In this document: positions 7,187 to 26,204 of the stretch, piece by piece
How the letters are laid out: each line of letters opens with the position of its first letter
How positions within the stretch are numbered: the stretch's first letter is position 1
IMG/VR virus record: IMGVR_UViG_3300011445_000001
Strand: one strand, 5' to 3'
DNA: 64,000 bases
DNA from: an uncultured virus (IMG/VR IMGVR_UViG_3300011445_000001)
Lineage: Duplodnaviria > Heunggongvirae > Uroviricota > Caudoviricetes
Made by a program: the position numbers and the translations under genes
The notes under the pieces: model-generated
What the model saw: the letters and a program-made list of their open reading frames with translations, nothing else
Databases searched by the model: none
What the model was told of the DNA's origin: nothing

Positions 7187-7198
7187 CCGCTTAGTACA

Positions 7199-8332
7199 CT
7201 AAGCCGGGGTCAGCTGCCCAACCGACTTCGCGGCCGTGGTGGCCGAGGAGGTGCGGAGCCCCTTGCTGTACTTGCGCGGGACGCGGTTCAGGTGCTTGAA
7301 CTCGGGGCCGGTGCCGATGAAGCCCACCTGTACGCCGGTCACTTCCTGTACCTTCTGCACGAACTCCCGGGTGGCCGGGGTCAACAGGTGGTAGCTGCCC
7401 CTACCGCGATTCTTGTAGTCGAGGTAGTCCAGCGCCACAAGGGCGATCTGTGTCGGACGGTTGATCAGGCACGCGCGCTTGGCCTGATCGTAATCGAATC
7501 GCCCAACCCGACGAACCTTCTTCGTCACCTGCGTCATTTCGGTGAGGTCACTGGGCGCCCCGCTTTCGGCCGTCACCTGAGCCCACGTCAGCTCATCCTT
7601 GATCGGCCCGGCCTGCTGGCCGGATACACGGATTGGGAAGGCGCGCATCACCAGAATCACATCGGTGACGAGGAACGGCGACAATCCCACCTCACTGACG
7701 AAGGCGGCGGCGCCAGTGTCGCGTGAGGTGGCGCAGGGATAGGATTCACCGTGGTAGAGCGACAACCCAAATCCCTGCGTGCCCTCGATCATGATGTTCT
7801 CACCGGCATCCACGGCGTCGTTCAGGATCTTGGCCGTGTCGGCCAGCATGGACGCCCACGGCAACCCATCGACCGTGATATCCTTGGCGAGCTTGACGTC
7901 CTTGCCGCGCATGATACGACGAGCCGAGGCTGCGCCCACGCCGCTCTGCGTAGACGAAATCTGGTCGAACATACCGGCGCCGGACTCGACCTCGATGTCC
8001 TGTCGTTCAATGATCATGGCGTTCCGGTCGACGAGGATGCGGTCGGCCGTGATCGCAAACCGCTCCATCTCCGCCTTCAAGATCTCCGGATTGATGAGCG
8101 ACCCGGCGGGAAGCACCAGCTTCACCGACTGACTGACCAACCCCGACACGGAAAGCTGTCTGGCCGACTGGATGGTACCATCGGCAGAGGTCAGAGAATG
8201 TCCGGCATTCGTACCACCGCAGCGCACCGCGTACGTACAGTTGTTCTCTACAACGATCTTGGCGGCAACGCGGCCCTTGCCTTCCGACCCGAACTGTCCG
8301 CCGCTGACAACAAACACTCTACCCTTCTTCAT
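7199..8332 (-). CDS. purZ: adenylosuccinate-synthetase-family protein, PurZ0-like (2-amino-dAMP succinate synthetase candidate)
   Basis: GGQFGSEGKG (Ser where PurA has catalytic Asp), GGTNAGH, EGTQGFGL, TSRD, FPIRV (Ile where PurA has Thr), RRVG, GTGP; AAGGAG SD. Family is certain; the PurZ0 subtype is inferred. Confidence 0.7.
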   Translation of the reverse strand: MKKGRVFVVSGGQFGSEGKGRVAAKIVVENNCTYAVRCGGTNAGHSLTSADGTIQSARQLSVSGLVSQSVKLVLPAGSLINPEILKAEMERFAITADRILVDRNAMIIERQDIEVESGAGMFDQISSTQSGVGAASARRIMRGKDVKLAKDITVDGLPWASMLADTAKILNDAVDAGENIMIEGTQGFGLSLYHGESYPCATSRDTGAAAFVSEVGLSPFLVTDVILVMRAFPIRVSGQQAGPIKDELTWAQVTAESGAPSDLTEMTQVTKKVRRVGRFDYDQAKRACLINRPTQIALVALDYLDYKNRGRGSYHLLTPATREFVQKVQEVTGVQVGFIGTGPEFKHLNRVPRKYSKGLRTSSATTAAKSVGQLTPA

Positions 8333-8337
8333 TCTGC

Positions 8338-8544
8338 CTAGCTCCTTTGTGTGCCCCACTTTATCCGTAGTTCTGTGATCCTCTTCAGCTTGCTGGTACA
8401 CTCGGCGCACCAGAGAGCCTCGGGTATCACTGAGTTAATGTTCGCGCCAAAGTCGTCGATAATCACCTGCCCGCCCTCGCATTCGGTGATCAAAGTCATT
8501 AGGCCGACTAGGGCCTGAAACTGTGCCTCATTGAGCGGTGCCAT
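8338..8544 (-). CDS. hypothetical protein
   Basis: MAPLNEAQ...CAEC; preceded by GTGTATAA. Confidence 0.4.
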   Translation of the reverse strand: MAPLNEAQFQALVGLMTLITECEGGQVIIDDFGANINSVIPEALWCAECTSKLKRITELRIKWGTQRS

Positions 8545-8551
8545 CTCATGA

Positions 8552-8749
8552 TTATACACCCATCCTGTCGTCCCACTCCCGCATCGCCATCCCAAGAATC
8601 GCCGAATTAGATGCGGCCTCTTGGTGTCGCTTCAACACCCGAACTATACTGCTCAAAACCGCCTCTCGCTTAGTCGGGTGGACCTTTAGGTAAAGCCAAT
8701 TCCGAAGTTCCTGTGCTTGGGGTCCGTTGAGTATCTTGGTGGCCGCCAC
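8552..8749 (-). CDS. hypothetical protein
   Basis: Packed ORF. Confidence 0.45.
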   Translation of the reverse strand: MAATKILNGPQAQELRNWLYLKVHPTKREAVLSSIVRVLKRHQEAASNSAILGMAMREWDDRMGV

Positions 8750-9222
8750 TAAACACCCTCCTCGAAGATGAACTTATCAAAGGCCTCTTGCCCGATCAGG
8801 GCAATCAGTCGCTTCTCCCACTGCGCAAGCGACCGGGCGGTTAAAGCGTGAAAGGAACCGCCCATTCTCTGTCTCTGTTCTCTCAACCGCTTCACATACA
8901 CCTTACAGGATTCGGGTGTAAAGCATCCCTCGCGCTCGACCTGAAGAATCGGCTGGGGCGGTTGGGGGGCAGCGCTGTCGTGTATCTCCCGGGCGAGCTT
9001 TTGGGCCGCCGGGCTGAGGTGCTGGGTCTTGTCGATCAGCTGGTCTAGCTCCTTTTTGGCTGCCTTATCCTTGCGCCGGTCGCGGTTCCGCTTAGCGGCG
9101 ATCTTACCACACGGCTTGCAGTACCAATGCTTACCATCCGGCTGCGACTTGTTGTTGCCGAAGTTCTCAATAGCAACCGGCAACTTGCACATCTTACAGA
9201 CCTTCGTAGTCTGCTCTTCCAT
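8749..9222 (-). CDS. Zn-ribbon protein
   Basis: CKMC...NF...DG...YCKPC N-terminal finger; strong SD. Confidence 0.6.
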   Translation of the reverse strand: MEEQTTKVCKMCKLPVAIENFGNNKSQPDGKHWYCKPCGKIAAKRNRDRRKDKAAKKELDQLIDKTQHLSPAAQKLAREIHDSAAPQPPQPILQVEREGCFTPESCKVYVKRLREQRQRMGGSFHALTARSLAQWEKRLIALIGQEAFDKFIFEEGV

Positions 9223-9255
9223 AGGCCCTCCTTCTAGAGTCCTACCCTAAATGTC

Positions 9256-9271
9256 GCAAACACCATGCCAC
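9256..9271 (-). promoter_or_regulatory. sigma54-type -24/-12 promoter
   Basis: TGGCAT-GGTGT-TTGC in an intergenic gap. Confidence 0.7.
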
Positions 9272-9334
9272 CCGGTAAGGCCTTGAGATGCTGGTGAAGC
9301 CAAAGGTATGGGAACGACACTGCACACCTTGGAC

Positions 9335-9565
9335 CTAAGACATATCTCGGGTAGATGCGTCGATCTCAAGGCCGTAGACTTCCCACAACTTACCATTGGC
9401 GTCGCACACCATGTAACGCATGCCTCCGCGCACCACCTCGTTGCCTGAAATTCGGAAGTCCTCGGTGAAGCCAACCTCAACCACAATCGCCACCTCAAAC
9501 CGCAGCCGGGCCCTTGTGTATTGCGAGGGCTCGACCCTCTGCCCAAGCTGAAACTTCTGCTTCAT
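9335..9565 (-). CDS. hypothetical protein (SH3/KOW-like)
   Basis: KFQLGQRVE start typical of small beta-barrel phage proteins. Confidence 0.45.
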   Translation of the reverse strand: MKQKFQLGQRVEPSQYTRARLRFEVAIVVEVGFTEDFRISGNEVVRGGMRYMVCDANGKLWEVYGLEIDASTRDMS

Positions 9566-9849
9566 AATGGCACCACCTTGTACTTCTGTCCGTCCGTAGG
9601 CCCGGTCTCTTTCATCTGGAGACCGACCCGCTTCAGAAGCCTAGCGGCATCCAAAAGGTCGGTTCGCATATGGCCATCTTGCAGAACCCGCTGCACCCGA
9701 ATGAGCTTACCCGGGGCCTTGGGTGGGCGGCGGGCAAAGGCGGCCATAACCGCCTCGAGGATCGTCGTCGCCTCCTGCCTCCACTGTTCGCTGCCGGTCT
9801 GGATTAGGTAGACGCGGCGGATCGGCCTTTCTGTTCGCTTTTTTGCCAC
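9562..9849 (-). CDS. hypothetical protein
   Basis: GGAGG SD, GTG start. Confidence 0.5.
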   Translation of the reverse strand: MAKKRTERPIRRVYLIQTGSEQWRQEATTILEAVMAAFARRPPKAPGKLIRVQRVLQDGHMRTDLLDAARLLKRVGLQMKETGPTDGQKYKVVPL

Positions 9850-9874
9850 CGTTTTGCCCTCCAGTGAAGAGGTA

Positions 9875-9898
9875 GGGGGCCGGGTCGCCCCAGCCCCC
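9875..9898 (-). terminator. GC-rich hairpin, possible terminator
   Basis: GGGGGCCGGG...CCCAGCCCCC imperfect stem after the DUF932 gene; weak U-tract. Confidence 0.4.
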
Positions 9899-9914
9899 GA
9901 TCCTTGGGGTTGTA

Positions 9915-10976
9915 CTACTTGATCAAGGCCAACGCGTGGGCGTAGGCCCGCTGCTTTTCCTTCGCGCGGTTGCCGAAGAGGACCGACGCGCCCACGTCCG
10001 AGCCAAAGGACTCGCGCCAGTCGGAGACTTCGGTTACCGCATTATACGCCGCCCACACCGAGCCACGAAGGTGGGCCGGGTCAAACGCCTCGAACTGCTG
10101 TACACCGGTGGCGCGCAAAGCGCGAGCATGGCGCACGTCCCGATGCCACACTTCCTTGGCCTTCACAACCGCATTGAGGCGCGTGCCGAACGCCGACGTC
10201 ACGATGTTCTCGTCGGACGTCCCGGAGGCCCGCTCAAGAAGACGGACTTCATTGGGCATCGGCGGATCGGGCCATGCCGCCAACAGAAGCTCCTGCAGGT
10301 TGGCCTCGGTGATCTGCACACTGGCGAACCGGTCGAAGACCTCTTTCGACTGGGCAGTGATGGTACGGAACTTCGCGATCAGCTCGGTGGCGAACTGCAG
10401 CCGCTCCTCAGCCTTGTCGTTGTGCGGGATCGCCAGATTGATGGAGGCACTGCTCTGGGCGATCAAGTTCGTGTTGTTGCACACCACGCGCACCTTCGAC
10501 GAAAACGCGCGATGGGCGGTGCCGGGCTGATTCGACAGGTTGACGATGTAGTAGTCCCGCATCTCATCGCCCTTCACATCGAAGTCGGGGCCCCGTAGCG
10601 ACAGAAAGCAGAGAGCGCCTTCCTTCAGAAGCCCAGCGGTTTCGACCTTGTAGGTCCCGGAAAGCAGGTCCAGCCGCTGGGCCAGCGCCACGTAGTCGAT
10701 GTACTGCCAGTCACCCGACACCACACCAAACACCCGATACTCCGGGTCGTCGGAGGTAGGGCGGCGGATGATGGCCCTATGCCCAGTCTCCATCGCGGTG
10801 GGCTGGTTTGGTAGATGGACAACGAGCGGCTGCGACACTATCTCAATGTCGCCTGCGACCTCGCGCACTGCGTCGCTAGCCGACACCGCCGCATCCTCAG
10901 GGAAGACGCGGCCAAGCTCGTGCCACGCCGGTTTGCTTCGCGCCAGAAAGCGCTTGCCGAGAATGTCATGTGCCAT
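9915..10976 (-). CDS. DUF932 family protein
   Basis: PAWHELG, ETAGLLKEG, VRVVCNNT, GSVWAAYNAVTEVSD; AAGGAG SD before MAHDI. Confidence 0.85.
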   Translation of the reverse strand: MAHDILGKRFLARSKPAWHELGRVFPEDAAVSASDAVREVAGDIEIVSQPLVVHLPNQPTAMETGHRAIIRRPTSDDPEYRVFGVVSGDWQYIDYVALAQRLDLLSGTYKVETAGLLKEGALCFLSLRGPDFDVKGDEMRDYYIVNLSNQPGTAHRAFSSKVRVVCNNTNLIAQSSASINLAIPHNDKAEERLQFATELIAKFRTITAQSKEVFDRFASVQITEANLQELLLAAWPDPPMPNEVRLLERASGTSDENIVTSAFGTRLNAVVKAKEVWHRDVRHARALRATGVQQFEAFDPAHLRGSVWAAYNAVTEVSDWRESFGSDVGASVLFGNRAKEKQRAYAHALALIK

Positions 10977-11055
10977 TTGCGGAATCTCCTTAGATTGGGG
11001 TGGGCCGAGGCTCTCATGGTAAGACCGTGACCTCGGCCCGCTCCCCTGTGGTTGG

Positions 11056-11334
11056 TTACTTGGTTTCGGTGATCGTCGTCTGGGTGTACTCCTTGATCCG
11101 CGCGTACGGTTCCTTGACTTCCTTCGGAACATCATACTGCGTCATGGTCTTTTTGACGTTCTGCACCACGAACCGGCCCACCTGCACGACCGGGCCCATC
11201 TCACGAAGCTCTTCCTTCACCTCGTCGTCAAGCTTCTTGAACTCCTTGGCGGCGGCTTCAAGTTCCGCGCGGCGTTCCAGCTTCTGTGCCAGCGCCGAGT
11301 TTCCGTGAACCTTCTCAATTTCAAGCGTCTTCAT
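11056..11334 (-). CDS. hypothetical protein
   Basis: GGAGG SD; first gene after a sigma54-type motif. Confidence 0.6.
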   Translation of the reverse strand: MKTLEIEKVHGNSALAQKLERRAELEAAAKEFKKLDDEVKEELREMGPVVQVGRFVVQNVKKTMTQYDVPKEVKEPYARIKEYTQTTITETK

Positions 11335-11377
11335 CTTGCCTCCACTTGGTTAGGGTCGCTTCTTGCGCTAAAAGACC

Positions 11378-11393
11378 GCAAACCCAATGCCGA
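11378..11393 (-). promoter_or_regulatory. sigma54-type -24/-12 promoter
   Basis: TCGGCAT-TGGGT-TTGC-GGTCTTTTA; downstream TTTGCGGTCTTTTA is shared with the 27276 promoter. Confidence 0.75.
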
Positions 11394-11501
11394 ATTGGTT
11401 GGGGGTCCAAGGTCCACAAGAGGGGCTAAAGGGCCAAACGGGGGCGCAACCGATTGCGAATCTAGAGCAAGGGAGGGGTAAGGGCTATGGGTGTAGGGTG
11501 G

Positions 11502-11786
11502 CTAGACCAAATCCCCGGGCGGGGTGGGCGGCAAGTCGCCGTTTTTGAGCATGGCCCCATCCTCGTAGGGGCCGAGGTGGCGGCGGAGGAACTCGACCTT
11601 AACGCACTCAAGCATACCGACTAGGTTGTTGGCGGTGGCATACCGGCGCTCCTGCTCCCATTTGTACCAGACAATTCTGGAGATCAGGTAATTCAGCTCG
11701 CCGGGGGTGGCAAACTTCAGAAGCGAAAGAAGGGGCTCGAGAGCGCGGTCAAATCTGACACGATCCTCCGGTGGAATATAGGGCAC
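11502..11786 (-). CDS. conserved phage protein (MPYI...GELNY...PYED...NGD family)
   Basis: Recognisable motif string; GTG start with AGGAG SD. Confidence 0.65.
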   Translation of the reverse strand: MPYIPPEDRVRFDRALEPLLSLLKFATPGELNYLISRIVWYKWEQERRYATANNLVGMLECVKVEFLRRHLGPYEDGAMLKNGDLPPTPPGDLV

Positions 11787-11890
11787 GGCTAGTCTCCTGA
11801 TCCGTCCCACTGGTAGAAAATTGGCACCGGGGTCGCATTGCAGCGGTAGGCGCCCCAGTCGAAATCGTGTTGGTAGTAAAGAATCAGCAT

Positions 11891-12562
11891 CTAGAATTCG
11901 CGGGGAGGTCTGGGCTGAAAGTCGAACTGCCCAAGCTCGTTGACGGAGTAGCAGTGGCCGTAGGGCTTGAACCGACGCTGAATTCGCTTGAGGGACTCAC
12001 GACCGAAGGGCCCGTAGGCAGAAATCAGCTTGCCCTCGAGATGGTCGTACTCGTGTTGGGCATGTCTAGCCTCGGGGCCGCTCAACACTCCCCGACGGGT
12101 CTGGCCATCCTCGGTCATATACTCGATCCGAACCTCGTTTGGCCGGAGCACAAGAGCCGAGAATTCGGGGATCGAGAAGCAATGCTCCCGCGCCGAAGTT
12201 AGCTGAGACCCCTCGATGGAGGAAAGCACCGGATTCTGCATAATCTCGAGGTTGCCGTCATTAAGCCGCACAATCATGACGCGCACGCTGTACCCCAGCT
12301 GGTTGGCTGCAAACCCAGCCGCGCCCAGTATCGCAGCAACGGCCTTCAGATCTTCAATAGCTTTCGGGGCCTCGGAGAGCGAACAGAGCACGTGATCTAT
12401 TGAGTCAACCGGCCCAAGACAAGCATTGCCATAGGTGGCAATGTAGAACTTCCGCAGTGGCTTAGGAGTAGTGGGGGCGGTCGGAGTCAGACCGAAACCC
12501 TCTTGCCCGGGAATGGTGGCGGGGGCTATGGTCTGCGGTGCGGGGGCCTTCTCTTCGTTCAC
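11891..12562 (-). CDS. def: peptide deformylase
   Basis: AGFAANQ (motif 1), EHCFS (EGCLS variant), QHEYDHLEG (HExDH). Confidence 0.8.
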   Translation of the reverse strand: MNEEKAPAPQTIAPATIPGQEGFGLTPTAPTTPKPLRKFYIATYGNACLGPVDSIDHVLCSLSEAPKAIEDLKAVAAILGAAGFAANQLGYSVRVMIVRLNDGNLEIMQNPVLSSIEGSQLTSAREHCFSIPEFSALVLRPNEVRIEYMTEDGQTRRGVLSGPEARHAQHEYDHLEGKLISAYGPFGRESLKRIQRRFKPYGHCYSVNELGQFDFQPRPPREF

Positions 12563-12855
12563 TCGGACTCCTCTGCCTTTGGGGCCTTTTTGCTTCGCGG
12601 CATCTTCAGCTCTACCTGCCTACGAATCCACGACTTCGGGATTGTGACGTCGCCATCGAAATGCTCAGCGTTGACACTCGAAGCGATGGTGATGGCATCG
12701 GTGTTTTCGTGCAAGAGCCAGCCAACAGACCAGCACACAACCGGATTGGGGTCGATGCTCTCAAGGGCCTTCCACCCGGGCTCAGATTCGGATGCGGCGT
12801 CGAGCCACTCCACAAAGAGTAATTTGCGTTTCGTTTCCATATTAGGCGTACCCAT
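12559..12855 (-). CDS. conserved hypothetical phage protein
   Basis: VEWLDA...SVGWL...IP..WI pattern. Confidence 0.6.
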   Translation of the reverse strand: MGTPNMETKRKLLFVEWLDAASESEPGWKALESIDPNPVVCWSVGWLLHENTDAITIASSVNAEHFDGDVTIPKSWIRRQVELKMPRSKKAPKAEESE

Positions 12856-13300
12856 AGCGGAAGATTTCGACTAGAAAATCGCACGCCGGAGCAAGGTCGC
12901 CGAACACGCCCACCGAGTGCTTCAGCACCCAAGGGCTTCGCTCATCGGCCTTTCCGAAGCATACCACCGGCATATTCAAGACGTGGTTAGCGTAAAAGAT
13001 CTCCATGGCCGTTCCCCAACTCGGGCGGCCAATGTTCACCAGCAGGCCTTGGCACTTCTTAATAATCTCAAGGTCCTTCCAGACGATGTAATTCACGCCC
13101 GGGATGTCGTAGGTCAGCTGGGATTCGTGCTCGGGCTTCGTGCCACCGCTCAGGCGGTCGTATACCGCGCCCTCGAGGCAAAGGGGCGAAATGCCCTCGA
13201 CCCCGCTCGATGCAAAGATGGCCGTGGCCTCATCACGCCAGCCGCGCGATTCCGAAAAGCCAAGCCCCTGAATTCCGCCAGCAAGGTATACCCTCTTCAT
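12842..13300 (-). CDS. nucleoside 2-deoxyribosyltransferase / dNMP N-glycosidase family
   Basis: VYLAGG...WR...DLEII...SWGTAMEIFYA. Confidence 0.8.
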   Translation of the reverse strand: MKRVYLAGGIQGLGFSESRGWRDEATAIFASSGVEGISPLCLEGAVYDRLSGGTKPEHESQLTYDIPGVNYIVWKDLEIIKKCQGLLVNIGRPSWGTAMEIFYANHVLNMPVVCFGKADERSPWVLKHSVGVFGDLAPACDFLVEIFRYGYA

Positions 13301-13331
13301 GGGATGTGGTACACCGGCGGTTGGCGGGCGG

Positions 13332-14180
13332 TTAATCATGGTACAGCGTGCCAACTTCGTCGCCATTTGCCTTGCGCACCAGATACCCCATCTCGCGGAT
13401 TCGGTCGCATAACTCGTCGAAGTAGTACACGCCATCGATCAGGCCCATCTGATACCCAACGTCGCTTGTATAGGCCGCTCCGTTGGCAACGGATAGCGTG
13501 TATTGAACCACCGATCCCGTATCTGACGCGCCGAGGGTTAACAGGGCGCGGGTCCGAAGCCGATCAAACCGGTGCACCAGAATCTGATTTACAAACTGCA
13601 CGTATGTGGGGCGCACGGCGTTCGAAAGCGACATCCACTCCTCTATGGTCAAAGGAGTGTGCGGGCTTCCCTCCATCTTTCGTGCGCCGCTGGTGAAGAA
13701 GTAGTAACGCAAACCGATCATAGAGTCTTGAGAAGTGGCATCGATTCGCACGATATAAACCCCAATAGACCCCACCAAGCTTACGGGAGATGCGAAGATT
13801 GAGTCGGCCCCACAAGCAACCCAATACGCACCGGAGGCCAGCATGTACTCTGAGTAGACCCAAATGGGCTTGTTGTATTTGGCCTTAAGAACCTCAAGTC
13901 CATGGGCCAGAAGCTTCGTGTTCTGAACAGTTCCACCGGGGGAATCAAGCCACAGCACCAGAAGCTTGGTTTCAGACTTCATAACCACCGACTCGATCTT
14001 GTGCAGCCACTCGGGCGTGACCGAACCCTCAAACTTGACCACCACGGCCACATCTGGACTCAGCACCTCGCCGATCCGAACGAAGGGCTTTGTTGGTCCA
14101 CAGCCAGCACAACTAAGCACGGCGGCCATCAAAACCGACGCAACCGCCAACCCCAAAACCAGCCGTAGTAACTTTCTCAT
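13332..14180 (-). CDS. S49 (SppA-like) serine peptidase with lipoprotein signal
   Basis: LDSPGG, ASGAYW, VGSIGV, SGARK; N-terminal MRKLLRLVLGLAVASVLMAAVLS-C. Confidence 0.85.
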   Translation of the reverse strand: MRKLLRLVLGLAVASVLMAAVLSCAGCGPTKPFVRIGEVLSPDVAVVVKFEGSVTPEWLHKIESVVMKSETKLLVLWLDSPGGTVQNTKLLAHGLEVLKAKYNKPIWVYSEYMLASGAYWVACGADSIFASPVSLVGSIGVYIVRIDATSQDSMIGLRYYFFTSGARKMEGSPHTPLTIEEWMSLSNAVRPTYVQFVNQILVHRFDRLRTRALLTLGASDTGSVVQYTLSVANGAAYTSDVGYQMGLIDGVYYFDELCDRIREMGYLVRKANGDEVGTLYHD

Positions 14181-14208
14181 GGTTTCCTCTCTATTCTCGT
14201 TCTTGTCC

Positions 14209-14709
14209 TTAATGCGGTCGAATGGCCTGCACACCCAAATCATACCTGTAGGCATTTGGGCGAGGCGCCCTACCCACCACCCGAAGACCGGCGTGATGCA
14301 CCAACGCAATTAGGCGGTTCTGGTCATATGCGGCGTGGTGCAAATTGAGATCGTACGTCTGTGCACCAAAGAAGAGCGTACTGAACTCCTCAATATCGAT
14401 GCGCCCCGTAACCAAGTCCTCAGCCAACAGTCGCGAGTCGGGGCAGTAAATTCGCAACAAACCGCCCGGCTTTAAAATCAGGGCCCAGCGCTTTACCGCC
14501 TCAATCGCGTCAGGGTTAGTCATGTGCTCAATAACGTGGGAGGCCCGGATCTCGTCAACCTGCCCCAACATAGTATCTGGGAGATTGCGGATGTCGCACA
14601 CGATATGCACACCCGGCAGCGGTCTGGCATCAACATTTACAAAATCAACCAAGCGGGGCGAGCCAGATCCTCCATCAAATTCCTCATTGCCACCGAGATT
14701 TAGGCGCAT
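14209..14709 (-). CDS. class I SAM-dependent methyltransferase (type 11-like)
   Basis: LNLGG, VNVD, SHVIEH, LKPGG.LRIYCPD. Confidence 0.8.
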   Translation of the reverse strand: MRLNLGGNEEFDGGSGSPRLVDFVNVDARPLPGVHIVCDIRNLPDTMLGQVDEIRASHVIEHMTNPDAIEAVKRWALILKPGGLLRIYCPDSRLLAEDLVTGRIDIEEFSTLFFGAQTYDLNLHHAAYDQNRLIALVHHAGLRVVGRAPRPNAYRYDLGVQAIRPH

Positions 14710-17931: not shown

Positions 17932-18898
17932 ATCTCTGTCCTTTGGTGGTTAGCATTCTCTCCATGAAACTCCAGCACTCCCCTGCTCGATGTACATCCA
18001 AGTGAGACCGGTAGACGGCGTCTTGTCCAGCCTTAGCGATTATACCCCGCAGATCCGGCTCTTCGTATAGGAACCGGCGGGCGATGTCGATCAGGCCGTG
18101 CGCCCCATGAAACATAACCAGATGCTTACCGTCCCTAAATGGGATATTGGCGTGTCGAATGCCCGACATCAGATAGAACGACCCCGATCCAAGCACCTGC
18201 CACAACCGGTCGGAGGTTGCGGCGTGCTGATTGGGCAATCGTGGCAACCCAACCACTATCCGACATCGCGCATAGAAATTCCCAACCTCGGCACCAAGCA
18301 AAAGCCCATCAGCTGCGGGGTTGTGAATTACCCAGTTAGAGGAAATGCGAGGAAACGCCTCCATCAAGATGCGACGCCGGTAGTCATTAACATAACCCAA
18401 AAAGCCGATATCATAGATCTTGTCTGTGGTGGTGGGCTCAAGGCAGCGGTTAAAAGACGGCGGCAACCAGTAGGCCCCAAGGGGGTAGGCCCGCGCTCGC
18501 GCGTCTGCTATACTTTTGTGCTCCTGCAACAGCATAGCAGCACTGCGTTGAAGCTCGTTCAAGATTGCGTCGTGAGACGGATGAATTACCTCGTCGGAGT
18601 CGTGCACAACCACGTTGGTGAACCCATAGCGACGCAAGTGGCGCACCAGATCGAAATCCGACCGAGACGCAACCACAATCCAGTCCGGCTGCGACTTCTG
18701 AATATCGCGCAAAATCTCGGGGAATTGGGCTTGGTCTACGCGAAAGGACGTGGCTCGGCGGGTGGAATTGGAAAGGGACAGGTGGACATCGCGGCCCTGC
18801 TGCTTATAGAGTTCAAAGAATCGCTGCGTACCAGAGGCGCCGCATCCGGGCTCCCATGGACGACAAACAAAATGGAGTCTCACGCTGGTTTCTGACAA
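17909..18898 (-). CDS. CgeB/Glyco_trans_1_2-like glycosyltransferase
   Basis: YDIGFLG...RR, SDRLWQVLGSG, IAKAGQ..V...H....RA. Confidence 0.75.
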   Translation of the reverse strand: MSETSVRLHFVCRPWEPGCGASGTQRFFELYKQQGRDVHLSLSNSTRRATSFRVDQAQFPEILRDIQKSQPDWIVVASRSDFDLVRHLRRYGFTNVVVHDSDEVIHPSHDAILNELQRSAAMLLQEHKSIADARARAYPLGAYWLPPSFNRCLEPTTTDKIYDIGFLGYVNDYRRRILMEAFPRISSNWVIHNPAADGLLLGAEVGNFYARCRIVVGLPRLPNQHAATSDRLWQVLGSGSFYLMSGIRHANIPFRDGKHLVMFHGAHGLIDIARRFLYEEPDLRGIIAKAGQDAVYRSHLDVHRAGECWSFMERMLTTKGQRYENSGRI

Positions 18899-19371
18899 TA
18901 AACCACGAGATTGGTGCGGGCGTCATGGCGCGAGTAACAGGCCTGCGGGCCTTCGTGGATATTACTAAACCCGGCACTAAACAAGAGATCATGCAAATAC
19001 ACCCAGTCAAACATCAACGTTTGTCTGAGGCCGGGCTCGTTCACACCGTAAATACCCTGAATTACGGTTTCGGCCCCAATCCGGCCCGACAAATACTCGC
19101 GCAACAAGGGCTTAGAATCGGGAACCTCAATGTTGAGGGTCCCGCCGGGACGCAACACCCGGAACCACGAGGCCAGCGTCGTTGGCACCAAACTGCGATC
19201 AGGGAGGCACTGCAAAGCGTGGGCGGAATAAATGGCGTCCACGCTTTCGGTCTGGATAAGACGGAGGTAGCAAATATCACAAGCAATCTCCGCCGCATCA
19301 CCCAGCTCGATGTCGACCCCAACAAAGCCGTCTACGCGCTGGTTGCCACACCCAACATTAAGCCTGTACAT
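18880..19371 (-). CDS. class I SAM-dependent methyltransferase (type 11-like)
   Basis: LNVGCG, GVD, WFRVLRPGG.L.IEVPD; paralog of 14209-14709. Confidence 0.82.
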   Translation of the reverse strand: MYRLNVGCGNQRVDGFVGVDIELGDAAEIACDICYLRLIQTESVDAIYSAHALQCLPDRSLVPTTLASWFRVLRPGGTLNIEVPDSKPLLREYLSGRIGAETVIQGIYGVNEPGLRQTLMFDWVYLHDLLFSAGFSNIHEGPQACYSRHDARTNLVVYCQKPA

Positions 19372-20377
19372 GCACCAAAACCCCAGCCTTCATAAGGTAG
19401 CCGTTCAACTCATCGAAGTAGGCCTTCTTGTCAATATAGGGCAAGAAGGACGCGTTGATATTGCGCCTCAAAAATCCAACGGTACGCGCCTCGCCAAGCT
19501 CTCCCATCAACAGACATAACTCGTCGGTCAGAGTTGTATCGAACATCGTCGGGTCGTCCGAATGCACGGTTACGTTAAGGCCCCGGCGCTCCATCTCCAA
19601 GATGGGGTGGTTGGCGAACCGATCTACCAAGCCTACGCGGATGTTGGACATTGGGCAGACCTCAATCGGTATCTGCGTGATAGCCAGAAAGTCCATTAGC
19701 TGCGGGTCCTTCACGGCCGTGATACCGTGCCCAATCCGCTCCACGTTGAGATTGCGCACTACATCCCAGATCACCTGTGTGTCTTTCCATTCACCGGCGT
19801 GGGCCACAACCCGAAGGCCCGAATCGGCCGCCGTTTGGAAGATACCGGCAAATCGCTTCGAATCACCGCGCTCAGACCCACCCAAACCAAGGCCAATGAT
19901 GTACTCGCTTTTCTTGCGGATCGTGGCCTTCAGTGCATCTAGAGCCACCCCAACATCCCGGTCGCGGGACACGTCGGGGATGCAGCGCAGCTTGATATTG
20001 TACTTGATCTCGGCCTGTCGACACGCCCGGGCAATCACAGATAGGGCCTCTTCCGGGTTTACCTCGTGCAGGATGTGCAGCGCCAACGACACAAAGAACT
20101 CACAGTAGCGAATGTTCTCATCGGCTCGAGATTTAGCGAAGCGGTCCACCAGCAGATAAAAATCCTCGGGCTTCCGGATGGCGGTGGTGCAGGTATGGTA
20201 AACCTCAAGGAAATGAACGAGGTTCTTGTACTGAAAATACCGCTCCCCCTCCGCAACGGTAGTGAACGGAAGGTTAACGCCGTTCTCGCGCGCAAGCTGA
20301 AGGTAGGTCTCGGGGGTAGTGGCGCCCTCGAGATGGCAATGCAGCTCAACCTTAGGAGCTTCGCTAAGCCAGCTCAT
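19358..20377 (-). CDS. add: adenosine/adenine deaminase family
   Basis: PKVELHCHLEG, AHAGE, ERIGHG, EVCPMSN, SDDP; all metal and catalytic motifs present. Confidence 0.92.
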   Translation of the reverse strand: MSWLSEAPKVELHCHLEGATTPETYLQLARENGVNLPFTTVAEGERYFQYKNLVHFLEVYHTCTTAIRKPEDFYLLVDRFAKSRADENIRYCEFFVSLALHILHEVNPEEALSVIARACRQAEIKYNIKLRCIPDVSRDRDVGVALDALKATIRKKSEYIIGLGLGGSERGDSKRFAGIFQTAADSGLRVVAHAGEWKDTQVIWDVVRNLNVERIGHGITAVKDPQLMDFLAITQIPIEVCPMSNIRVGLVDRFANHPILEMERRGLNVTVHSDDPTMFDTTLTDELCLLMGELGEARTVGFLRRNINASFLPYIDKKAYFDELNGYLMKAGVLVHVQA

Positions 20378-21300
20378 GAGTGTGCTTCCATCAAGGCCCA
20401 GTACTGGTCGATGCGCGTGCGCAAGGTGTGGTTGGCCTCAATTTCCCGCTGACCATTTAGCGCCACCAGTTCCCGTTCGACTTCGTGCTTCAAGTACTCT
20501 CGAATCTTGAAGACCATATCGCCATAACTGCCGTAGGTAATTAAATGCCGATCGGGCATGAAGAGACGTTCGATCTTCGGAATCCCGAAGGTCAAGTACA
20601 TAGCCCCGCACCCCATGGCCTTGTAAATTCGGTCGGACGTCGTAAAGTCGCCATATTCAAAGTTGCCCCGCTTGATGTCAATGGCAATCTTGCTTTGGCG
20701 GTAAAGATTGGCCATCTCGGTGCCGAATGCCGGAGTCATAGTGCCATCCGCAAGGCGATTAGACCCACGAATACAGCACTTAAACCCCTCCCTTCGCAGG
20801 AGGCGCAACCAAGTCTGTCGCGTATCGTCATGATCCGAATCGCCAAAGAAGGCCACGTCGAAGATCTCGTGATCGGGACTTAGTCGGGAGATTGTAGGGG
20901 CGTAATAATCACTGTCATAGTACTGCGGCACCCACTCCAAGCACCGCGCCAGACCCTTGTACCGATTCACCACATCTAGGGTGGAGTTAACTACGACGTG
21001 CGGGACCCCAACCGTTTCGCGCCAAATGGAGTCACGCGTGGCATCTACGGCGTCGGCGTCCCAAACCATAAGCTTGTAGGTGGAAGCAAGGCGTCTCAAC
21101 ACAGGAAGACCGAGACTGCGGATGCCGGTCACAAACACCCAGTCCGGCTTGTTGGCCTCTACCGTATTCCAGAGGCGGTGATCAGGCAGTCCGGCGTAAC
21201 TAACAAACCCGACGTGCTTCTGGCGAGCAAGCGCCGCGTGGTAAATCAAGAGCCCATTCTGCCAAGGCGTCGACCCATTTCCGAGGATTACCACCTTCAT
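20374..21300 (-). CDS. CgeB/Glyco_trans_1_2-like glycosyltransferase
   Basis: FDVAFFG, YRQSKIAI, SDRIYKAMGCG, NHTLRTR. Confidence 0.78.
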   Translation of the reverse strand: MKVVILGNGSTPWQNGLLIYHAALARQKHVGFVSYAGLPDHRLWNTVEANKPDWVFVTGIRSLGLPVLRRLASTYKLMVWDADAVDATRDSIWRETVGVPHVVVNSTLDVVNRYKGLARCLEWVPQYYDSDYYAPTISRLSPDHEIFDVAFFGDSDHDDTRQTWLRLLRREGFKCCIRGSNRLADGTMTPAFGTEMANLYRQSKIAIDIKRGNFEYGDFTTSDRIYKAMGCGAMYLTFGIPKIERLFMPDRHLITYGSYGDMVFKIREYLKHEVERELVALNGQREIEANHTLRTRIDQYWALMEAHS

Positions 21301-22340
21301 GCGGCCACTGCCTCAAAAATGTCTTTCATGATGGGGCCAAGGGTCGTCCACGAGTGACATCGCTCAATGTGCGCGCGGGCGCGGGACGAGCGTTCGGGAA
21401 GGTTATTACAGGCCTTGGCGGCAAGCATCTTCATCATCAAGCTTCCGGTGTTTGGCTGGTAGACCAATCCGTTTTGAACTCGGCCGATAGGGCCGCTGGC
21501 GGGAGCCTCCACGAGCCAATCGACGTCGGGAATAACCTCGTTCAGTGGCGGTATGTTGGAACCGATAACGGGAATGCCACACGACATCGCCTCACGGAAG
21601 GGAAGACCAAGCCCCTCGCGCCGAGATGGAGACAGGTAAACGTCGCCCTCTTTATAGAGGTCAACGGCCTGAGGAAAGTTACCAAGGCGAAAGTCTACAT
21701 TGCGCAGCAGGCCCGGGTCTACTGGGATTTGCGAGTGCACAATCAAACGGCACCCAGACTGATCAATTCGGCGCCAAGCCTGAAACACAAAATCCCACCC
21801 CTTGCGCATGCCATCGCCGCCGTGGCCTATGTTGTGCAGGAAAGTTAGAGGGCGGTCGACCCCGCGCGGGGTGAAAGCGAAGTACTCAGTGTCAATCGGC
21901 CACGGCAAGTAGACCGACGGCAATCCCTCTTGTGTCAGGGTATTGTGGCAGTACTGCGACGGGGAAACGAACAAATCAATTAAGCCGATGTACCCCGACT
22001 TGCGAATCCACGGCGTACCAACGCTGTCGATCATCGGAAACCACACAATCTTGATGCCAGCGGCCTTTAGCTGCGGAAGGAAGTGCCAGTTGTACGGGTA
22101 CTCGAATATGACCGCGATATCCGGCTTAGAAGCAAGGAATCTACGAAAGTTGGCGTCGAGCGAGGCGTCCCACTGGTCGGCGACGATATAATCACCCCGC
22201 ACAAACTCGAGATCGGTGCCCTTCTCGTGATGTGGGATCACAAAGTGCATGTAGACGTCGACATTTCGGTGAAACTGCTTCGCCATCTGTCCGAGGCCGG
22301 AGTTGTTGATGGTGGCGATCAGGCCGATCTTAGGGCTCAT
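21297..22340 (-). CDS. GT4 glycosyltransferase
   Basis: RKG, PSRREGLGLPFREAMSCGIPVI. Confidence 0.85.
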   Translation of the reverse strand: MSPKIGLIATINNSGLGQMAKQFHRNVDVYMHFVIPHHEKGTDLEFVRGDYIVADQWDASLDANFRRFLASKPDIAVIFEYPYNWHFLPQLKAAGIKIVWFPMIDSVGTPWIRKSGYIGLIDLFVSPSQYCHNTLTQEGLPSVYLPWPIDTEYFAFTPRGVDRPLTFLHNIGHGGDGMRKGWDFVFQAWRRIDQSGCRLIVHSQIPVDPGLLRNVDFRLGNFPQAVDLYKEGDVYLSPSRREGLGLPFREAMSCGIPVIGSNIPPLNEVIPDVDWLVEAPASGPIGRVQNGLVYQPNTGSLMMKMLAAKACNNLPERSSRARAHIERCHSWTTLGPIMKDIFEAVAA

Positions 22341-22447: not shown

Positions 22448-22451
22448 AAGC

Positions 22452-23222
22452 CTAGACGCCCACCCTCGGCTTAATCTCTTGGACGTTCTTGGTATCGCGG
22501 CCCCATCCACCACACTCAGTACAGGAGAACGCATGGTACTTGGTCGTTTTGTTCCTGTACCAGCCCTCCCACTTCAGCACGCCCGGACCACCGGCCCCAC
22601 ACTTAGGGCAAGTGTCGCCGGGGCGGTCCATCGCCATGTTCGGGTGGCTGACCATCCATGGACGGATCTTGAGGTACAACTGCTCGAGAATCGTGACGTC
22701 CCTCTTGTTATATCGAAGCATCTCACGCCACGCCGATGGGTCTCCCTTCATGCAGCGCGTCCAGCACGAGAAACCGCCGTGACCCATCTTTCTTGGAATG
22801 CCGAAGTAGGAGCACAGATCGTCGAGGCTGTGGCTGGGCAACCTGACGTACTTCTTGGCTTCGATCTTCGTGTCAATCACCCTGTATGGTGAAGGTGGGG
22901 TTAGGCCATGCGCAATAAACCGGGCGTTAACGACCTTGACGTCGAAATCCCGGCCGTTGTGGGCAACGACGGCGTCGGCTTGATTGAAGAACGACCGAAT
23001 GTCGGCCACAATCGCCTTGTCGTTCATCGCCCCGGCTTTGTATCCCTTGTAGTTTGGCCAGCCCCTCGTGATGTGGGAGCCACCAAGCCACTTAGCGGAA
23101 AAGCTTAAGATCCGGGTGTGAGCCAGCACCTCAATAAGGTTGGTTTGCCATTTGGGCCCCCACGTGTAAGCCACCAATGGCGTGGTCTCAATATCGAAGA
23201 ACAGAATCTTGGGTTGGCTCAT
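22452..23222 (-). CDS. RNase H-like (DnaQ/YprB-type) 3'-5' exonuclease with C-terminal Zn ribbon
   Basis: FFDIET, AHNGRDFD, YNKRDV, CPKC...CTEC. Confidence 0.85.
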   Translation of the reverse strand: MSQPKILFFDIETTPLVAYTWGPKWQTNLIEVLAHTRILSFSAKWLGGSHITRGWPNYKGYKAGAMNDKAIVADIRSFFNQADAVVAHNGRDFDVKVVNARFIAHGLTPPSPYRVIDTKIEAKKYVRLPSHSLDDLCSYFGIPRKMGHGGFSCWTRCMKGDPSAWREMLRYNKRDVTILEQLYLKIRPWMVSHPNMAMDRPGDTCPKCGAGGPGVLKWEGWYRNKTTKYHAFSCTECGGWGRDTKNVQEIKPRVGV

Positions 23223-23238
23223 CGTGCCTACTTTTACA

Positions 23239-23732: not shown

Positions 23733-23895
23733 ATTGAGACTTCGGTCCGGTAGAGGAATGGTGCTGCATTTTCCGCTCCGTCACCATAGTGGTGGTAACG
23801 TCTCGGATGAATCCAGAAGACTTGATCTCCTCGAGCAGGGGTCGGAGCTTTTCAACCACCCGATCGGCAATCTTGTCGATATCAGAGTCGTCCAT
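23710..23895 (-). CDS. hypothetical protein
   Basis: MDDSDIDKIAD..., GGAG upstream. Confidence 0.45.
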   Translation of the reverse strand: MDDSDIDKIADRVVEKLRPLLEEIKSSGFIRDVTTTMVTERKMQHHSSTGPKSQFDPSLYE

Positions 23896-23896
23896 G

Positions 23897-24490: not shown

Positions 24491-24651
24491 ATCGCTAGCT
24501 TTTTGAACCAACCACGGAGGGTCTTTATGCTAACGCGAAATACGATCGTGATGTCAATGTTGGTCTTACCTTCCGATCGCAATTCGCGGATCAAGGCGCG
24601 GAGGGCGGCGGGATTTGCTTCAATGCGGTTTTCACGACAAACACGCCGCAT
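24487..24651 (-). CDS. small HTH protein
   Basis: EGKTNIDITIVFRVSIKTLRGW helix-turn-helix pattern. Confidence 0.55.
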   Translation of the reverse strand: MRRVCRENRIEANPAALRALIRELRSEGKTNIDITIVFRVSIKTLRGWFKKLAI

Positions 24652-24664
24652 GGCGTCCGTTAGT

Positions 24665-24862
24665 TCAATCAAGGGACCACCCAGCCCAGTTCTTCGCCAT
24701 GTTCGCCGCCACGTCGTTGCATACACGACGGGCGAATCCCTTGCACATAGCACCAGAACAAAGACGAGTTCGACATTCTTGTGGGCGGTTGCGATCAGCA
24801 ATTGCCACCAGATCTTCAAACTCTTTACCACAGGCCGGGCATTTGTAAGTATAGAGCGGCAT
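24665..24862 (-). CDS. FmdB-family zinc ribbon protein
   Basis: MPLYTYKCPACGKEFE. Confidence 0.75.
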   Translation of the reverse strand: MPLYTYKCPACGKEFEDLVAIADRNRPQECRTRLCSGAMCKGFARRVCNDVAANMAKNWAGWSLD

Positions 24863-24863
24863 T

Positions 24864-24882
24864 GTGCGTGTGGTAGCGCGAC
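24864..24882 (-). repeat. 19-bp dispersed repeat, copy 1
   Basis: GTCGCGCTACCACACGCAC (minus strand), identical to 56560-56578. Confidence 0.75.
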
Positions 24883-24885
24883 AAA

Positions 24886-25014
24886 CTAGCCTGTGGTGTA
24901 AAGGCGCCTTGTGGATTCGACCAGAAGCTGGTGCTGAATGAGAACCAGCTGCGCGTGCGAGAGGGTAGGCACCACCGCGAGGAAGTCCGCTACCGCTTTA
25001 TTGGTGTCAGCCAT
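24886..25014 (-). CDS. small hypothetical protein (42 aa, below ORF-track cutoff)
   Basis: MADTNKAVADF...YTTG with AGGAG SD. Confidence 0.5.
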   Translation of the reverse strand: MADTNKAVADFLAVVPTLSHAQLVLIQHQLLVESTRRLYTTG

Positions 25015-25065
25015 TTTTATCTCCTGTGCTATTGCTCTCAAGTGTCTGAGCAGGTTTGTGTGCAT

Positions 25066-25473
25066 CTACTTCTTACCACCAAACTTTTCCATCATCGATG
25101 GTGCAACCTTCTCAACCGACCGCCCGATCACGTAGCCGCCGAGACCAAGCTGAAGGAGCGTCCACGCCTCTGGAGCGAGGCGATTAGACAACCAACCGAA
25201 GGAGTCGCACACAACGAGAACCAAAAACGTAAGCATCGTGACGGGGCGCCAATTGCGCTGCATCCACGACGCGCCGGTGGCCTCGGACTTGATAACCGAG
25301 GTTTGGAGGTCCAGAACCTTGGCCTCATACTCAAGCATCTTAGAGGCAATATCGTTCTGGAGTTTCTGCATCTCATTGACGAGCTTGCCCTTTTCCTCGG
25401 CCGAAGTGTGTATGCTGCCAATAAGCTCCGTAACCGGCTTAATCGCGTCCCCAAGAAATGCAAAGAGCCCCAT
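25066..25473 (-). CDS. 3TM holin (GTA-type)
   Basis: IKSEA...SWMQRNWRP...LGLGGYVIGRSVEK. Confidence 0.8.
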   Translation of the reverse strand: MGLFAFLGDAIKPVTELIGSIHTSAEEKGKLVNEMQKLQNDIASKMLEYEAKVLDLQTSVIKSEATGASWMQRNWRPVTMLTFLVLVVCDSFGWLSNRLAPEAWTLLQLGLGGYVIGRSVEKVAPSMMEKFGGKK

Positions 25474-25492
25474 AGACTACCCCCACTAAAGG

Positions 25493-25509
25493 TGTAGCCA
25501 ATTTTACAC
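25493..25509 (-). promoter_or_regulatory. GTGTA-type late promoter motif
   Basis: GTGTAAAA-TTGGC-TACA upstream of the holin. Confidence 0.6.
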
Positions 25510-26204
25510 TAGGCAATAGGGTCTTTAGGCTTCCAATCGGCGTAGCTGGTCGCCCGGTCGTCTTGCTCGGGGTGGGTGGACTCAAACTCCAGAAGCACGG
25601 CTGCATTCCACATCAGCTGGCCGAGGTGATGACATCTAGGAAGCTCCTCGTCGCGCCTCGACCCGGCGAGCCACTTCAACCAATGGCGCCAGAGAGGGCC
25701 GATTACCTTGGACCACGGCATGCCCTTCTCCCAATTACGGGCCGGGTACTTCTTAACCCCCTCGGTGAACACCAATCCAAGCTCTCGGATAGCGCTCTTC
25801 GGGATGAGGTCAATGCGGAGATCGGGGTTCTCGGTCATAACCTCGGCGATCATAGACAGAAACTCGGGGTGGATGAGGTCGGTGCGCAGCTTACCTTCGG
25901 TATATCGAAGGCCGACCGGCGATGCTTCCTGCTGGGCGTCGGTCACAACCACGACGTCATACGCCCAATCCCGAAAGTTCCGGACCTCGATCCGATACTC
26001 AACCTTGATGGTCTGCTGGTGGCAGAAATAGAGATTCGGCGGAGCATCTGCGGCAGCCAACAGCGCCGACGAGCCATCAGCAAACTGAACGATGAAATGC
26101 TCTGGTGTGGGGGGCGTATCGAACAGCGTGTCGAGGGTAGCGGGGTGCACCAGCACCGCGTGCCTGATGATACCAAATCGCTTTTGAGGGAGGGTTGCGT
26201 CCAT
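25509..26204 (-). CDS. dATP/dGTP diphosphohydrolase (DUF5664) with N-terminal extension
   Basis: GKLRTDLI, GVKKYPARNWEKGMPWS, RH, D.E....HHL...WNA; start uncertain. Confidence 0.8.
   Translation of the reverse strand: MDATLPQKRFGIIRHAVLVHPATLDTLFDTPPTPEHFIVQFADGSSALLAAADAPPNLYFCHQQTIKVEYRIEVRNFRDWAYDVVVVTDAQQEASPVGLRYTEGKLRTDLIHPEFLSMIAEVMTENPDLRIDLIPKSAIRELGLVFTEGVKKYPARNWEKGMPWSKVIGPLWRHWLKWLAGSRRDEELPRCHHLGQLMWNAAVLLEFESTHPEQDDRATSYADWKPKDPIA

Follow-up and report, generated by a model that had tools for sequence, protein, structure and literature searches.

A PurZ-like synthetase outside the two known phage clades points to a candidate 2-aminoadenine genome system in an uncultured tailed phage

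We have analysed a stretch of 64 kb (hereafter the window) out of the ~71-kb genome of an uncultured tailed phage (IMG/VR record IMGVR_UViG_3300011445_000001), with attention to a Ser-type homologue of adenylosuccinate synthetase and the genes of nucleotide metabolism that accompany it. The synthetase appears, from its sequence, to constitute a third, separate phage lineage of PurZ-type enzymes, and its active-site signature is that of PurZ. Published accounts (PMC12884076, bioRxiv 10.1101/2025.10.22.683976 and PMC8342488) distinguish two clades of phage PurZ-type enzymes, namely PurZ and PurZ0, which differ in the polymerase and the helper genes that go with them. Taking together the gene content, the active-site signature, the phylogeny and the conservation of the synthetase alongside a polymerase and helicases, the balance tips somewhat towards a succino-amino-deoxyadenylate synthase that would start the synthesis of dZTP (Z, 2-aminoadenine); with similar reserve, we lean towards the view that this phage makes Z-DNA. 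The six genes on which the initial annotation had built its proposal of a Z genome, encoding the synthetase, a DUF5664 protein, a protein resembling nucleoside deoxyribosyltransferases (NDT), an adenosine deaminase (ADA), MazG and a dCMP deaminase, are all present on the minus strand, at the positions given below.

The synthetase gene (7199..8332, minus strand, 377 aa) occupies an open reading frame (ORF) that spans 7199-8410, with Met27 at 8332 as the likely start, and its product is complete, aligning end to end with its homologues at 99% coverage. It contains the motifs GGQFGSEGKG and FPIRV, and matches PF00709 (2.2e-41) and phrog_1211, '2-aminooxy adenylosuccinate synthetase' (3.1e-66). 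The best-scoring NCBIfam model is that of the archaeal-type PurA, NF003295, whose cut-off it does not reach (293.9 against 368), and it also remains under that of the PurA model TIGR00184 (195.3 against 395.55). The solved structure that it matches best is PurA of Pyrococcus horikoshii (2.2e-57), followed at some distance by PurZ of phiVC8 (4e-31), PurZ0 of Archimedes (2.5e-30) and PurZ of S-2L (3.4e-21). GenBank phage records contain no relative above 60% identity; 205 records match, the best about 33% identical, and the best E-value belongs to Bacillus phage vB_BpsS-140 (1e-42). Single-protein scans of viral and genome contigs returned no relative of the synthetase. All four freshwater-sediment metatranscriptomic runs (4/4) yielded short contigs with at least 99% identity to the gene, within window positions 7327-8196, and it was the sole part of a 10-kb stretch covered in every one of the four RNA runs, the uncovered parts being uninformative. 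These contigs give a weak hint of expression of the synthetase, with DNA carry-over as another possible origin.

At the position of the catalytic Asp the synthetase carries Ser, which was invariant in a nine-row alignment comprising the window protein with its nearest homologues. Among the 120 best listed matches from a search of 5.8 billion proteins, this position was occupied by Ser in 96 and by Gly in 24 (the search pattern gave 94 Ser and 24 Gly, and the two unmatched sequences read GGQTGSEGKG); among the 150 best representatives from a library of 1.84 billion proteins, 106 had Ser, 4 Gly, 2 Asp and 1 Leu, the 37 left unmatched by the pattern being fragments or carrying variant loops. Ser is thus a family trait and not a chance change. 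The initial annotation had read this substitution as a substrate signature of the PurZ type, and the reading is borne out at further positions: in the numbering of phiVC8 PurZ, the window protein has F12, S14, T262 and W252, all of PurZ type, whereas the four aligned housekeeping PurA enzymes show D14, G262 and, at position 252, Q, P or E. W252 is reported as the top-ranked residue separating the enzymes of dZ-modified contigs from those of unmodified ones (bioRxiv 10.1101/2025.10.22.683976). Likewise, an insertion after 'PIRV' and the motif 'VTKKVRRV' are common to the window synthetase, PurZ and PurZ0, while housekeeping enzymes have instead 'FPTRVG-SGPFPTE' and 'VTGRxRRxGW'; in the study of the S-2L enzyme, the loop and the Arg303 position were tied to rejection of the ribose 2'-OH (PMC8342488). 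The Y244 insertion found only in PurZ is a gap in the window synthetase, and position 298 is Y.

The phylogenetic position of the enzyme was assessed in a 118-row tree (IQ-TREE, LG+C20 with posterior mean site frequencies, quick search, supports from the SH-like approximate likelihood ratio test, SH-aLRT, only) that comprised the window protein and six close metagenomic relatives, 36 enzymes from a cellular gene cassette described below, 44 library representatives, 11 enzymes of named phages and 20 housekeeping PurAs; by subsampling, the Acidobacteriota loci and the full-length representatives had each been thinned to one in three and the housekeeping sequences to one in two. One clade (support 100) united the window protein with its six relatives and was sister to the clade of Acidobacteriota cassette enzymes (support 96), with a joint support of 100. 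PurZ (support 99) and PurZ0 together with the enzyme of Streptomyces phage Keanu (support 100) fell in a different group (support 96), and the housekeeping enzymes, archaeal short and long forms, lay on one side of a branch with support 94. In an approximately unbiased (AU) test on a 51-row subset (LG+G4), forcing the window protein and four relatives into one clade with the 11 named-phage synthetases (PurZ, PurZ0, Keanu and Bacillus phage 140) cost 136.5 log-likelihood units and was rejected with a p-AU of 7.4e-6, an optimistic value since the group was chosen after the tree had been seen. The initial annotation had envisaged placing the enzyme among PurA, PurZ and PurZ0; clade placement and the AU test rule out both PurZ and PurZ0. 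Within the window clade, a phage-borne position is shown for two of the seven sequences, namely the window protein itself and that of the viral contig G007. As a separate observation, Bacillus phage vB_BpsS-140 (locus L190, 5956-7077) encodes a Ser-type synthetase, GGQVGSEGKG, that lies outside the PurZ and PurZ0 clades and beside the PurZ group.

The expectation that gene families linked to Z-phages would stand beside the synthetase was upheld for a DUF5664 protein, an NDT-fold enzyme and a family A polymerase. The DUF5664 domain, of the N-terminal type of dATP/dGTP diphosphohydrolases, forms the C-terminus of a 231-aa protein (25509..26204, minus strand; ORF to 26312) and is preceded by ~128 residues of unassigned kind. 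It matches PF18909 (3.6e-26; 91.5 bits, cut-off 27) and phrog_801 (2.9e-30), and is 41% identical over 90 aa (E 3e-18) to gp51 of Arthrobacter phage Wayne, a protein described as hydrolysing dATP, dGTP and dUTP to the corresponding dNMPs (PMC12884076).

The product of 12842..13300 (minus strand, ORF to 13435; 152 aa) is assigned to the NDT superfamily, that of nucleoside deoxyribosyltransferases and dNMP N-glycosidases, by its fold and catalytic triad. The first Pfam and PHROG scans gave nothing for this protein, and its score against PF05014 (25.1 bits, E 2.1e-5) lies below the cut-off of 28.8, while two close homologues, 71% and 64% identical, do carry PF05014. The NDT fold is confirmed at the level of an AlphaFold model (mean predicted local distance difference test score, pLDDT, 88.4), for which the top Foldseek matches were DNPH1, NDTs, YtoQ and MilB, those to DNPH1 and NDTs with an E-value of 1.5e-5 and TM-scores of 0.60-0.68. 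The triad Y5, D76 and E100, as well as P56, were invariant in 12 rows; their counterparts in DmtZ are Tyr6, Asn77, Glu103 and Pro57 (PMC12884076). For a homologue of the NDT-like protein (53%) and for one of the synthetase (64%), the longest contig on record has the same length, 18,060 b, which suggests that the two may share one contig. A MazG-like pyrophosphatase (55437..55805, minus strand, 122 aa; PF03819 1.1e-9, phrog_229 3.6e-35) gave no tblastn match to MazZ of S-2L, and the dCMP deaminase (57963..58433, minus strand; PF00383 7.4e-21, phrog_174 5.2e-43) is a peripheral member of the set, of the kind that serves generic dTTP supply.

The initial annotation had regarded the helper route, dATP to dAMP by DUF5664 followed by base release by an NDT-fold enzyme, as undescribed, a claim that we withdraw: both steps had already been published in 2025-2026 for PurZ0 actinophages, with DmtZ, DutZ and DUF5664-1 (PMC12884076), and PF05014 NDTs preferring dA have been linked to dZ contigs (bioRxiv 10.1101/2025.10.22.683976).

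No HD-domain protein and no polymerase catalytic domain were found among the ORFs of the window, 60 of which were scanned with Pfam and 90 with PHROGs. This agrees with the earlier statement as far as the window reaches; the polymerase lies just outside it. A metagenome contig of 71,134 b (L097), 100% identical to window 15702..1, extends 2,799 b beyond the left edge and encodes, ~1.2 kb beyond position 1, a family A DNA polymerase on the minus strand (L097:16905-18500, 3'-open) with a 3'-5' exonuclease motif and the motif DYSQIELRVAA. An identical copy of the NDT-like protein is recorded on 8 contigs, the longest of 71,124 b. These two assemblies, of nearly equal length and broken elsewhere than the window, suggest a genome of ~71.1 kb, of which 66.8 kb of sequence were covered; exact-word scans of viral contigs, started from the two ends of this sequence, gave no match. 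The best PDB matches of the polymerase are the E. coli Klenow fragment (2.2e-60) and Taq, and by its sequence it is not DpoZ-like. The search beyond the window for DatZ and DpoZ was therefore answered in part: a polymerase was found that is not of the DpoZ kind, and DatZ was not found in the 66.8 kb seen.

Other replication genes lie close to the synthetase, namely those of a DnaB-like helicase (3525-5003, minus strand) and an SNF2 helicase (5516-7186, minus strand), both assigned from domain matches. G007, a 42.5-kb viral contig with a guanine-plus-cytosine (GC) content of 40.7%, against ~57% in the window phage, encodes homologues of the synthetase (73% identity), the SNF2 helicase (72%), PolA (68%) and DnaB (59%), while the structural genes are not common to both. 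Since the synthetase is retained with PolA and the helicases and the structural genes are not, it travels with the replication module, and this replication-plus-synthetase module seems to move between very different phages. G007 also carries a sigma-70-like gene beside its polymerase region. In the window, an RNase_H_2-type 3'-5' exonuclease annotated as 'DNA polymerase exonuclease subunit' (22452..23222, minus strand; PF13482 1.3e-13, phrog_403 3.1e-76) completes the enzymes that bear on the proposed pathway.

In the pathway that we infer, which assigns a substrate to every enzyme, roles to the NDT-like enzyme, MazG and ADA, and Z to the virion DNA, the DUF5664 protein, perhaps together with MazG, would strip pyrophosphate from dGTP and dATP, and the synthetase would condense the resulting dGMP with aspartate. 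Host PurB and kinases would complete dZTP, which the phage family A polymerase, aided by the separate RNase_H_2 exonuclease, would incorporate into DNA. The NDT-fold enzyme would remove adenine from dAMP or dA, and ADA may then render the loss of adenine irreversible.

ADA (19358..20377, minus strand, 339 aa) matches PF00962 (2.2e-71) and scores 248.5 bits against TIGR01430, over the equivalog cut-off of 216.55, and as a sink for adenine or deoxyadenosine it would be chemically sensible. Adenosine deaminases also convert 2,6-diaminopurine nucleosides to guanine nucleosides; its effect in a Z-phage could therefore go either way. The gene is one of nine abutting or overlapping genes (14209..22340, minus strand) delimited by ORF coordinates and Pfam, and its ORF abuts or overlaps both neighbours, a methyltransferase-like gene and a glycosyltransferase. 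Besides ADA, this run contains two half-size methyltransferase-like ORFs, an unassigned 327-aa ORF, a DegT/LegC-like aminotransferase and four glycosyltransferases; the aminotransferase is LegC/PseC-like, its LegC-family score of 305 bits lying below the cut-off of 420, and the whole looks like a glycan or protein-glycosylation operon. With the gene lodged in such a run of glycosyltransferase, methyltransferase and sugar aminotransferase genes, the deamination step of the initial annotation is not supported. ADA probably serves the surrounding glycosylation/methylation operon or some other process unrelated to the removal of adenine for Z-DNA. Consistent with this, the Z-associated domains listed in the available text of PMC12884076 and bioRxiv 10.1101/2025.10.22.683976 do not include ADA, the word 'deaminase' having 0 occurrences in that of the latter, and a scan of viral contigs with the ADA clade returned only fragments of the same phage and distant ADAs. 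Set against it are the equivalog score, a clade of 13 close homologues at 46-82% identity, after which identity drops to ~40% with ordinary bacterial enzymes, and the rarity of the gene, matched by only 9 of 50,697 phage records, so that its presence here calls for a reason. None of those nine records is named among the listed PurZ matches, and several resemble bacterial or mixed assemblies.

The cellular sister group bears on the interpretation of the synthetase itself. The initial annotation had cautioned that Ser-type homologues also occur in cellular genomes without proven Z-DNA, a caveat that gains weight because the window synthetase belongs with a large cellular family. When one genome for each species was scanned with a profile, 200 relatives emerged; 80 loci were kept (L001-L080), many of them truncated by contig ends. 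They belong mostly to Acidobacteriota (Terriglobia, including the isolate Granulicella sp. S190), and others to Nitrospira, Dehalococcoidia, Halobacteria, Archaeoglobaceae, an Asgard archaeon and further groups; four archaeal Ser/Gly sequences have been placed basal to PurZ and PurZ0 (PMC12884076). Clustering of the ORFs of the 80 loci delineated a conserved cassette, exemplified by L017:7343-12117 of Granulicella sp. S190 (synthetase at L017:9962-11101), which consists of the Ser/Gly-type PurA homologue (74 loci), a protein of ~525 aa that combines an RNase_H_2 exonuclease domain with a DUF429-like tail (69 loci), a protein of DCD/dUTPase fold (69 loci), a P-loop kinase (51 loci) and a divergent helix-turn-helix (HTH) gene (40 loci). 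Pfam confirms these domains, as well as fused forms that join kinase with synthetase and synthetase with DCD (P0164, P0150); the DCD-fold protein of Granulicella ends in a hydrophobic C-terminal stretch, read by eye as membrane-spanning.

All 68 cassette enzymes extracted carry Ser (51) or Gly (17) at the catalytic position, against Asp in 38 of 38 housekeeping enzymes, and all ten cassette-bearing genomes tested (10/10) have a separate Asp-type housekeeping PurA, by which the Ser/Gly type is not the housekeeping enzyme. The cassette is patchy: of 61 genomes sampled from the class to which Granulicella belongs, 4 had it at E <= 1e-60, the centre genome counted. PADLOC (2023) holds no model for the cassette synthetase or the DCD-like protein and gave weak partial matches for the other two proteins; in the window, the synthetase and the NDT-like and DUF5664 proteins likewise have no PADLOC model. 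No description of the cellular cassette emerged from a literature search whose scope did not extend to the PurZ0 study of Tong et al. 2023 (Nat Microbiol 8:1330).

The strongest competitor to the Z-genome pathway as a whole is that the synthetase reprograms the deoxynucleotide pool of the infected cell, the genome not being fully Z-substituted and the helper genes representing generic nucleotide housekeeping; partial substitution, a sink for dGMP/dGTP, another N6-succino product or an interplay with a homologous cassette of the host would be examples. We regard this as rather unlikely. The following observations weigh against a Z genome, and those on the cellular cassette, the PurZ cut-off, the dATPase, the polymerase and G007 also speak for a reprogrammed pool. 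The nearest relatives of the synthetase are the cellular cassette enzymes, to which no function is assigned and for whose organisms we found no published report of Z-DNA; the enzyme remains under the cut-off of the PurZ hidden Markov model NF038379 (216.3 against 300), and the position of F295, which stacks on ATP in PurZ, is Ala. Within the 66.8 kb seen of the ~71.1-kb genome there is no DatZ, MazZ or dUTPase-family DutZ, and no dedicated dATPase: tblastn with DatZ and MazZ of S-2L gave no match (best E-values 0.27 and 0.43), and PF00692 and PF22769 were absent from the 60 ORFs scanned with Pfam, while dutZ is reported in 98 of 98 PurZ0 genomes (PMC12884076). BLAST of the NDT-like protein with Wayne gp53 (DmtZ) and Archimedes gp52, which we take as the DmtZ of that phage, gave no notable alignment. 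Two groups of DpoZ have been described that match PurZ and PurZ0 (PMC12884076); phiVC8 DpoZ was absent from the best 60 of the 72 PDB sequences matched by the window phage polymerase, which is only 24-25% identical to the Pol I of the PurZ0 phages Wayne and Archimedes. The helpers were not seen in the available part of G007, estimated to be 60% complete, in which 30 scanned ORFs included no DUF5664, NDT, HD or MazG.

Two further points tell against a Z genome as proposed, namely the position of ADA within its operon and the presence of a Dam-like N6-adenine DNA methyltransferase gene (53976-54791, minus strand; phrog_56 2.5e-16, weak PF02086), an enzyme that sits in a phage possibly with little or no adenine in its DNA. 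What nonetheless argues for the Z-genome pathway rather than for a reprogrammed pool is that the same signature residues are found in both experimentally characterised clades, PurZ and PurZ0, that DUF5664, the NDT fold and PolA co-occur with the synthetase, and that Ser-type enzymes of phages are taken as markers of Z genomes in the available text of PMC12884076.

The cassette also invites a broader hypothesis, which we consider doubtful and put forward with caution. It might represent a cell-encoded, self-contained pathway to a 2-aminoadenine-type deoxynucleotide, perhaps antiviral or nucleotide-poisoning. On this view the phage lineage would have captured the synthetase and assembled a Z-genome system of its own around it, using a third kind of PolA and, to purge adenine, an NDT-fold enzyme together with ADA. 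Apart from this hypothesis, the pairing or fusion of the cassette synthetase with a dUTPase/DCD-fold protein and a nucleotide kinase parallels the association of actinophage PurZ0 with DutZ (PMC12884076), which speaks for the Z-genome pathway of the phage and inclines us towards the logic from dNTP through dNMP to a succino-nucleotide for the cassette too.

That the gene encodes an ordinary adenylosuccinate synthetase acting as an auxiliary metabolic gene, and paired with ADA in purine salvage or interconversion so as to raise the supply of adenine or guanine nucleotides, is very improbable: ADA and PurA-type enzymes do each catalyse a step of purine interconversion, and the best structural match and best NCBIfam model are those of archaeal PurA, but Ser replaces the Asp kept by all 38 housekeeping enzymes extracted, T262 and W252 are of PurZ type, the NF003295 cut-off is not reached, and the ten cassette-bearing genomes tested keep a PurA of their own.

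The genomic setting is that of a phage throughout. The long ORFs of the window lie nearly all on the minus strand, and GC content ranges over 54-60% (~57%). Structural genes occupy 28-53 kb, encoding a terminase large subunit (51416-53098), minor tail proteins, a tape-measure protein and neck proteins, and replication and nucleotide genes lie outside this region; this combination of structural and replication genes identifies the window as that of a tailed phage. Host contamination was considered and rejected, as phage structural and replication genes flank the synthetase gene on both sides. Most of the structural proteins matched no PHROG family, a megablast search of phage records with the structural region found no relative, and the window has no recognisable tRNA genes. 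Among virus records, the nearest (G001) corresponds to window 21517-61471 at 99.99% identity. Metagenomes of freshwater sediment and groundwater contain DNA of the phage in 20 DNA runs, and five of these runs possibly represent the source itself.

Several further genes deserve mention. A Toprim primase is encoded at 23897-24511 among the replication genes, and SbcCD-like genes lie at 60.9-63.8 kb on the minus strand, where the SbcC-like ATPase is split into two ORFs, an N-terminal part at 62744-63847 and a C-terminal part at 60881-61522, with an SbcD-like phosphoesterase (61803-62747) and a 77-aa ORF between them. The stretch from the synthetase to the glycosylation operon (9915-14309, minus strand) includes genes for a DUF932 protein, a DUF6899 protein, a peptide deformylase and an S49 peptidase. 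An endonuclease VII/HNH-like gene occurs in two copies (8749-9222 and 56243-56587), and there are two sigma-factor-like genes, at window 58673-59983 on the minus strand and at L097:15832-16689, one of them with a weak Sigma70_r2 match.

If the phage does make Z-DNA, it would exemplify a third, independent assembly of the system, put together from a synthetase that comes from a cellular family, a polymerase resembling Klenow, an NDT-fold enzyme without sequence relationship to DmtZ, and, in addition, ADA. Relative to the published accounts that we found, the new elements are the third phage lineage with its cellular sister family, the third polymerase partner, the separately descended NDT-fold enzyme and ADA. 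Our data also connect the Z-DNA enzymes of phages with a large cellular enzyme family whose members, in the genomes tested, accompany a normal PurA, so that whether and why cells make a Z nucleotide becomes directly testable in a cultured Granulicella strain. Should the hypothesis of a cellular pathway and of the capture of its synthetase be correct, the synthesis of Z-type nucleotides would not be a phage invention.

Comparison with known systems places the window phage among several of them. With the short archaeal PurA (Pyrococcus horikoshii, PDB 2D7U/5K7X; NF003295) its synthetase shares overall length, fold class and the best match to a solved structure; the archaeal enzyme differs in its catalytic Asp, in 'FPTRVG-SGPFPTE' without the insertion and in 'VTGRRRR', and the window protein scores below the cut-off of that family. 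The cellular cassette provides the nearest relative, 45-55% identical and sister with a support of 100, with the same signature residues and likewise sub-threshold NCBIfam scores; its partners, the RNase_H_2 plus DUF429-like protein, the kinase, the DCD-fold protein and the HTH gene, are not in the phage window, where the first finds only a weak RNase_H_2 match (E 1.5e-5). The PurZ/DatZ/MazZ cluster of cyanophage S-2L, Vibrio phage phiVC8 and Acinetobacter phage SH-Ab 15497 (PDB 6FM1, 7ODX; PMC8342488) has F12, S14, T262 and W252 in common with the window phage, and would share with it the logic of dGTP to dGMP conversion plus dATP removal; DatZ and MazZ have no match here, the Y244 insertion and F295 of PurZ are missing, and the genes are spread over 50 kb instead of being clustered.

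NDT-M2, a PF05014 deoxyribosyltransferase of predicted dZ contigs (bioRxiv 10.1101/2025.10.22.683976), resembles the NDT-like protein by description, being of PF05014 type, borne by PurZ-bearing phages and proposed to deplete dA; it co-occurs there with DatZ, which was not found here. The PurZ0 actinophages (Arthrobacter phage Wayne, Gordonia phages Ghobes and Archimedes; PDB 7VF6) differ in that the window synthetase is only ~30-33% identical to theirs and falls in a separate clade, that no dUTPase-family DutZ was found here, that the NDT-like protein has no BLAST similarity to DmtZ, that PolA is distant at the identity given above and that ADA is an addition of the window phage. Common to both are the Ser-type synthetase with its loop insertion and TK(K)xRR motif, a family A polymerase, the lack of DatZ (for the window phage, in the 66.8 kb seen), the DUF5664 diphosphohydrolase and an NDT-fold enzyme with the Tyr/Asp-Asn/Glu triad and Pro.

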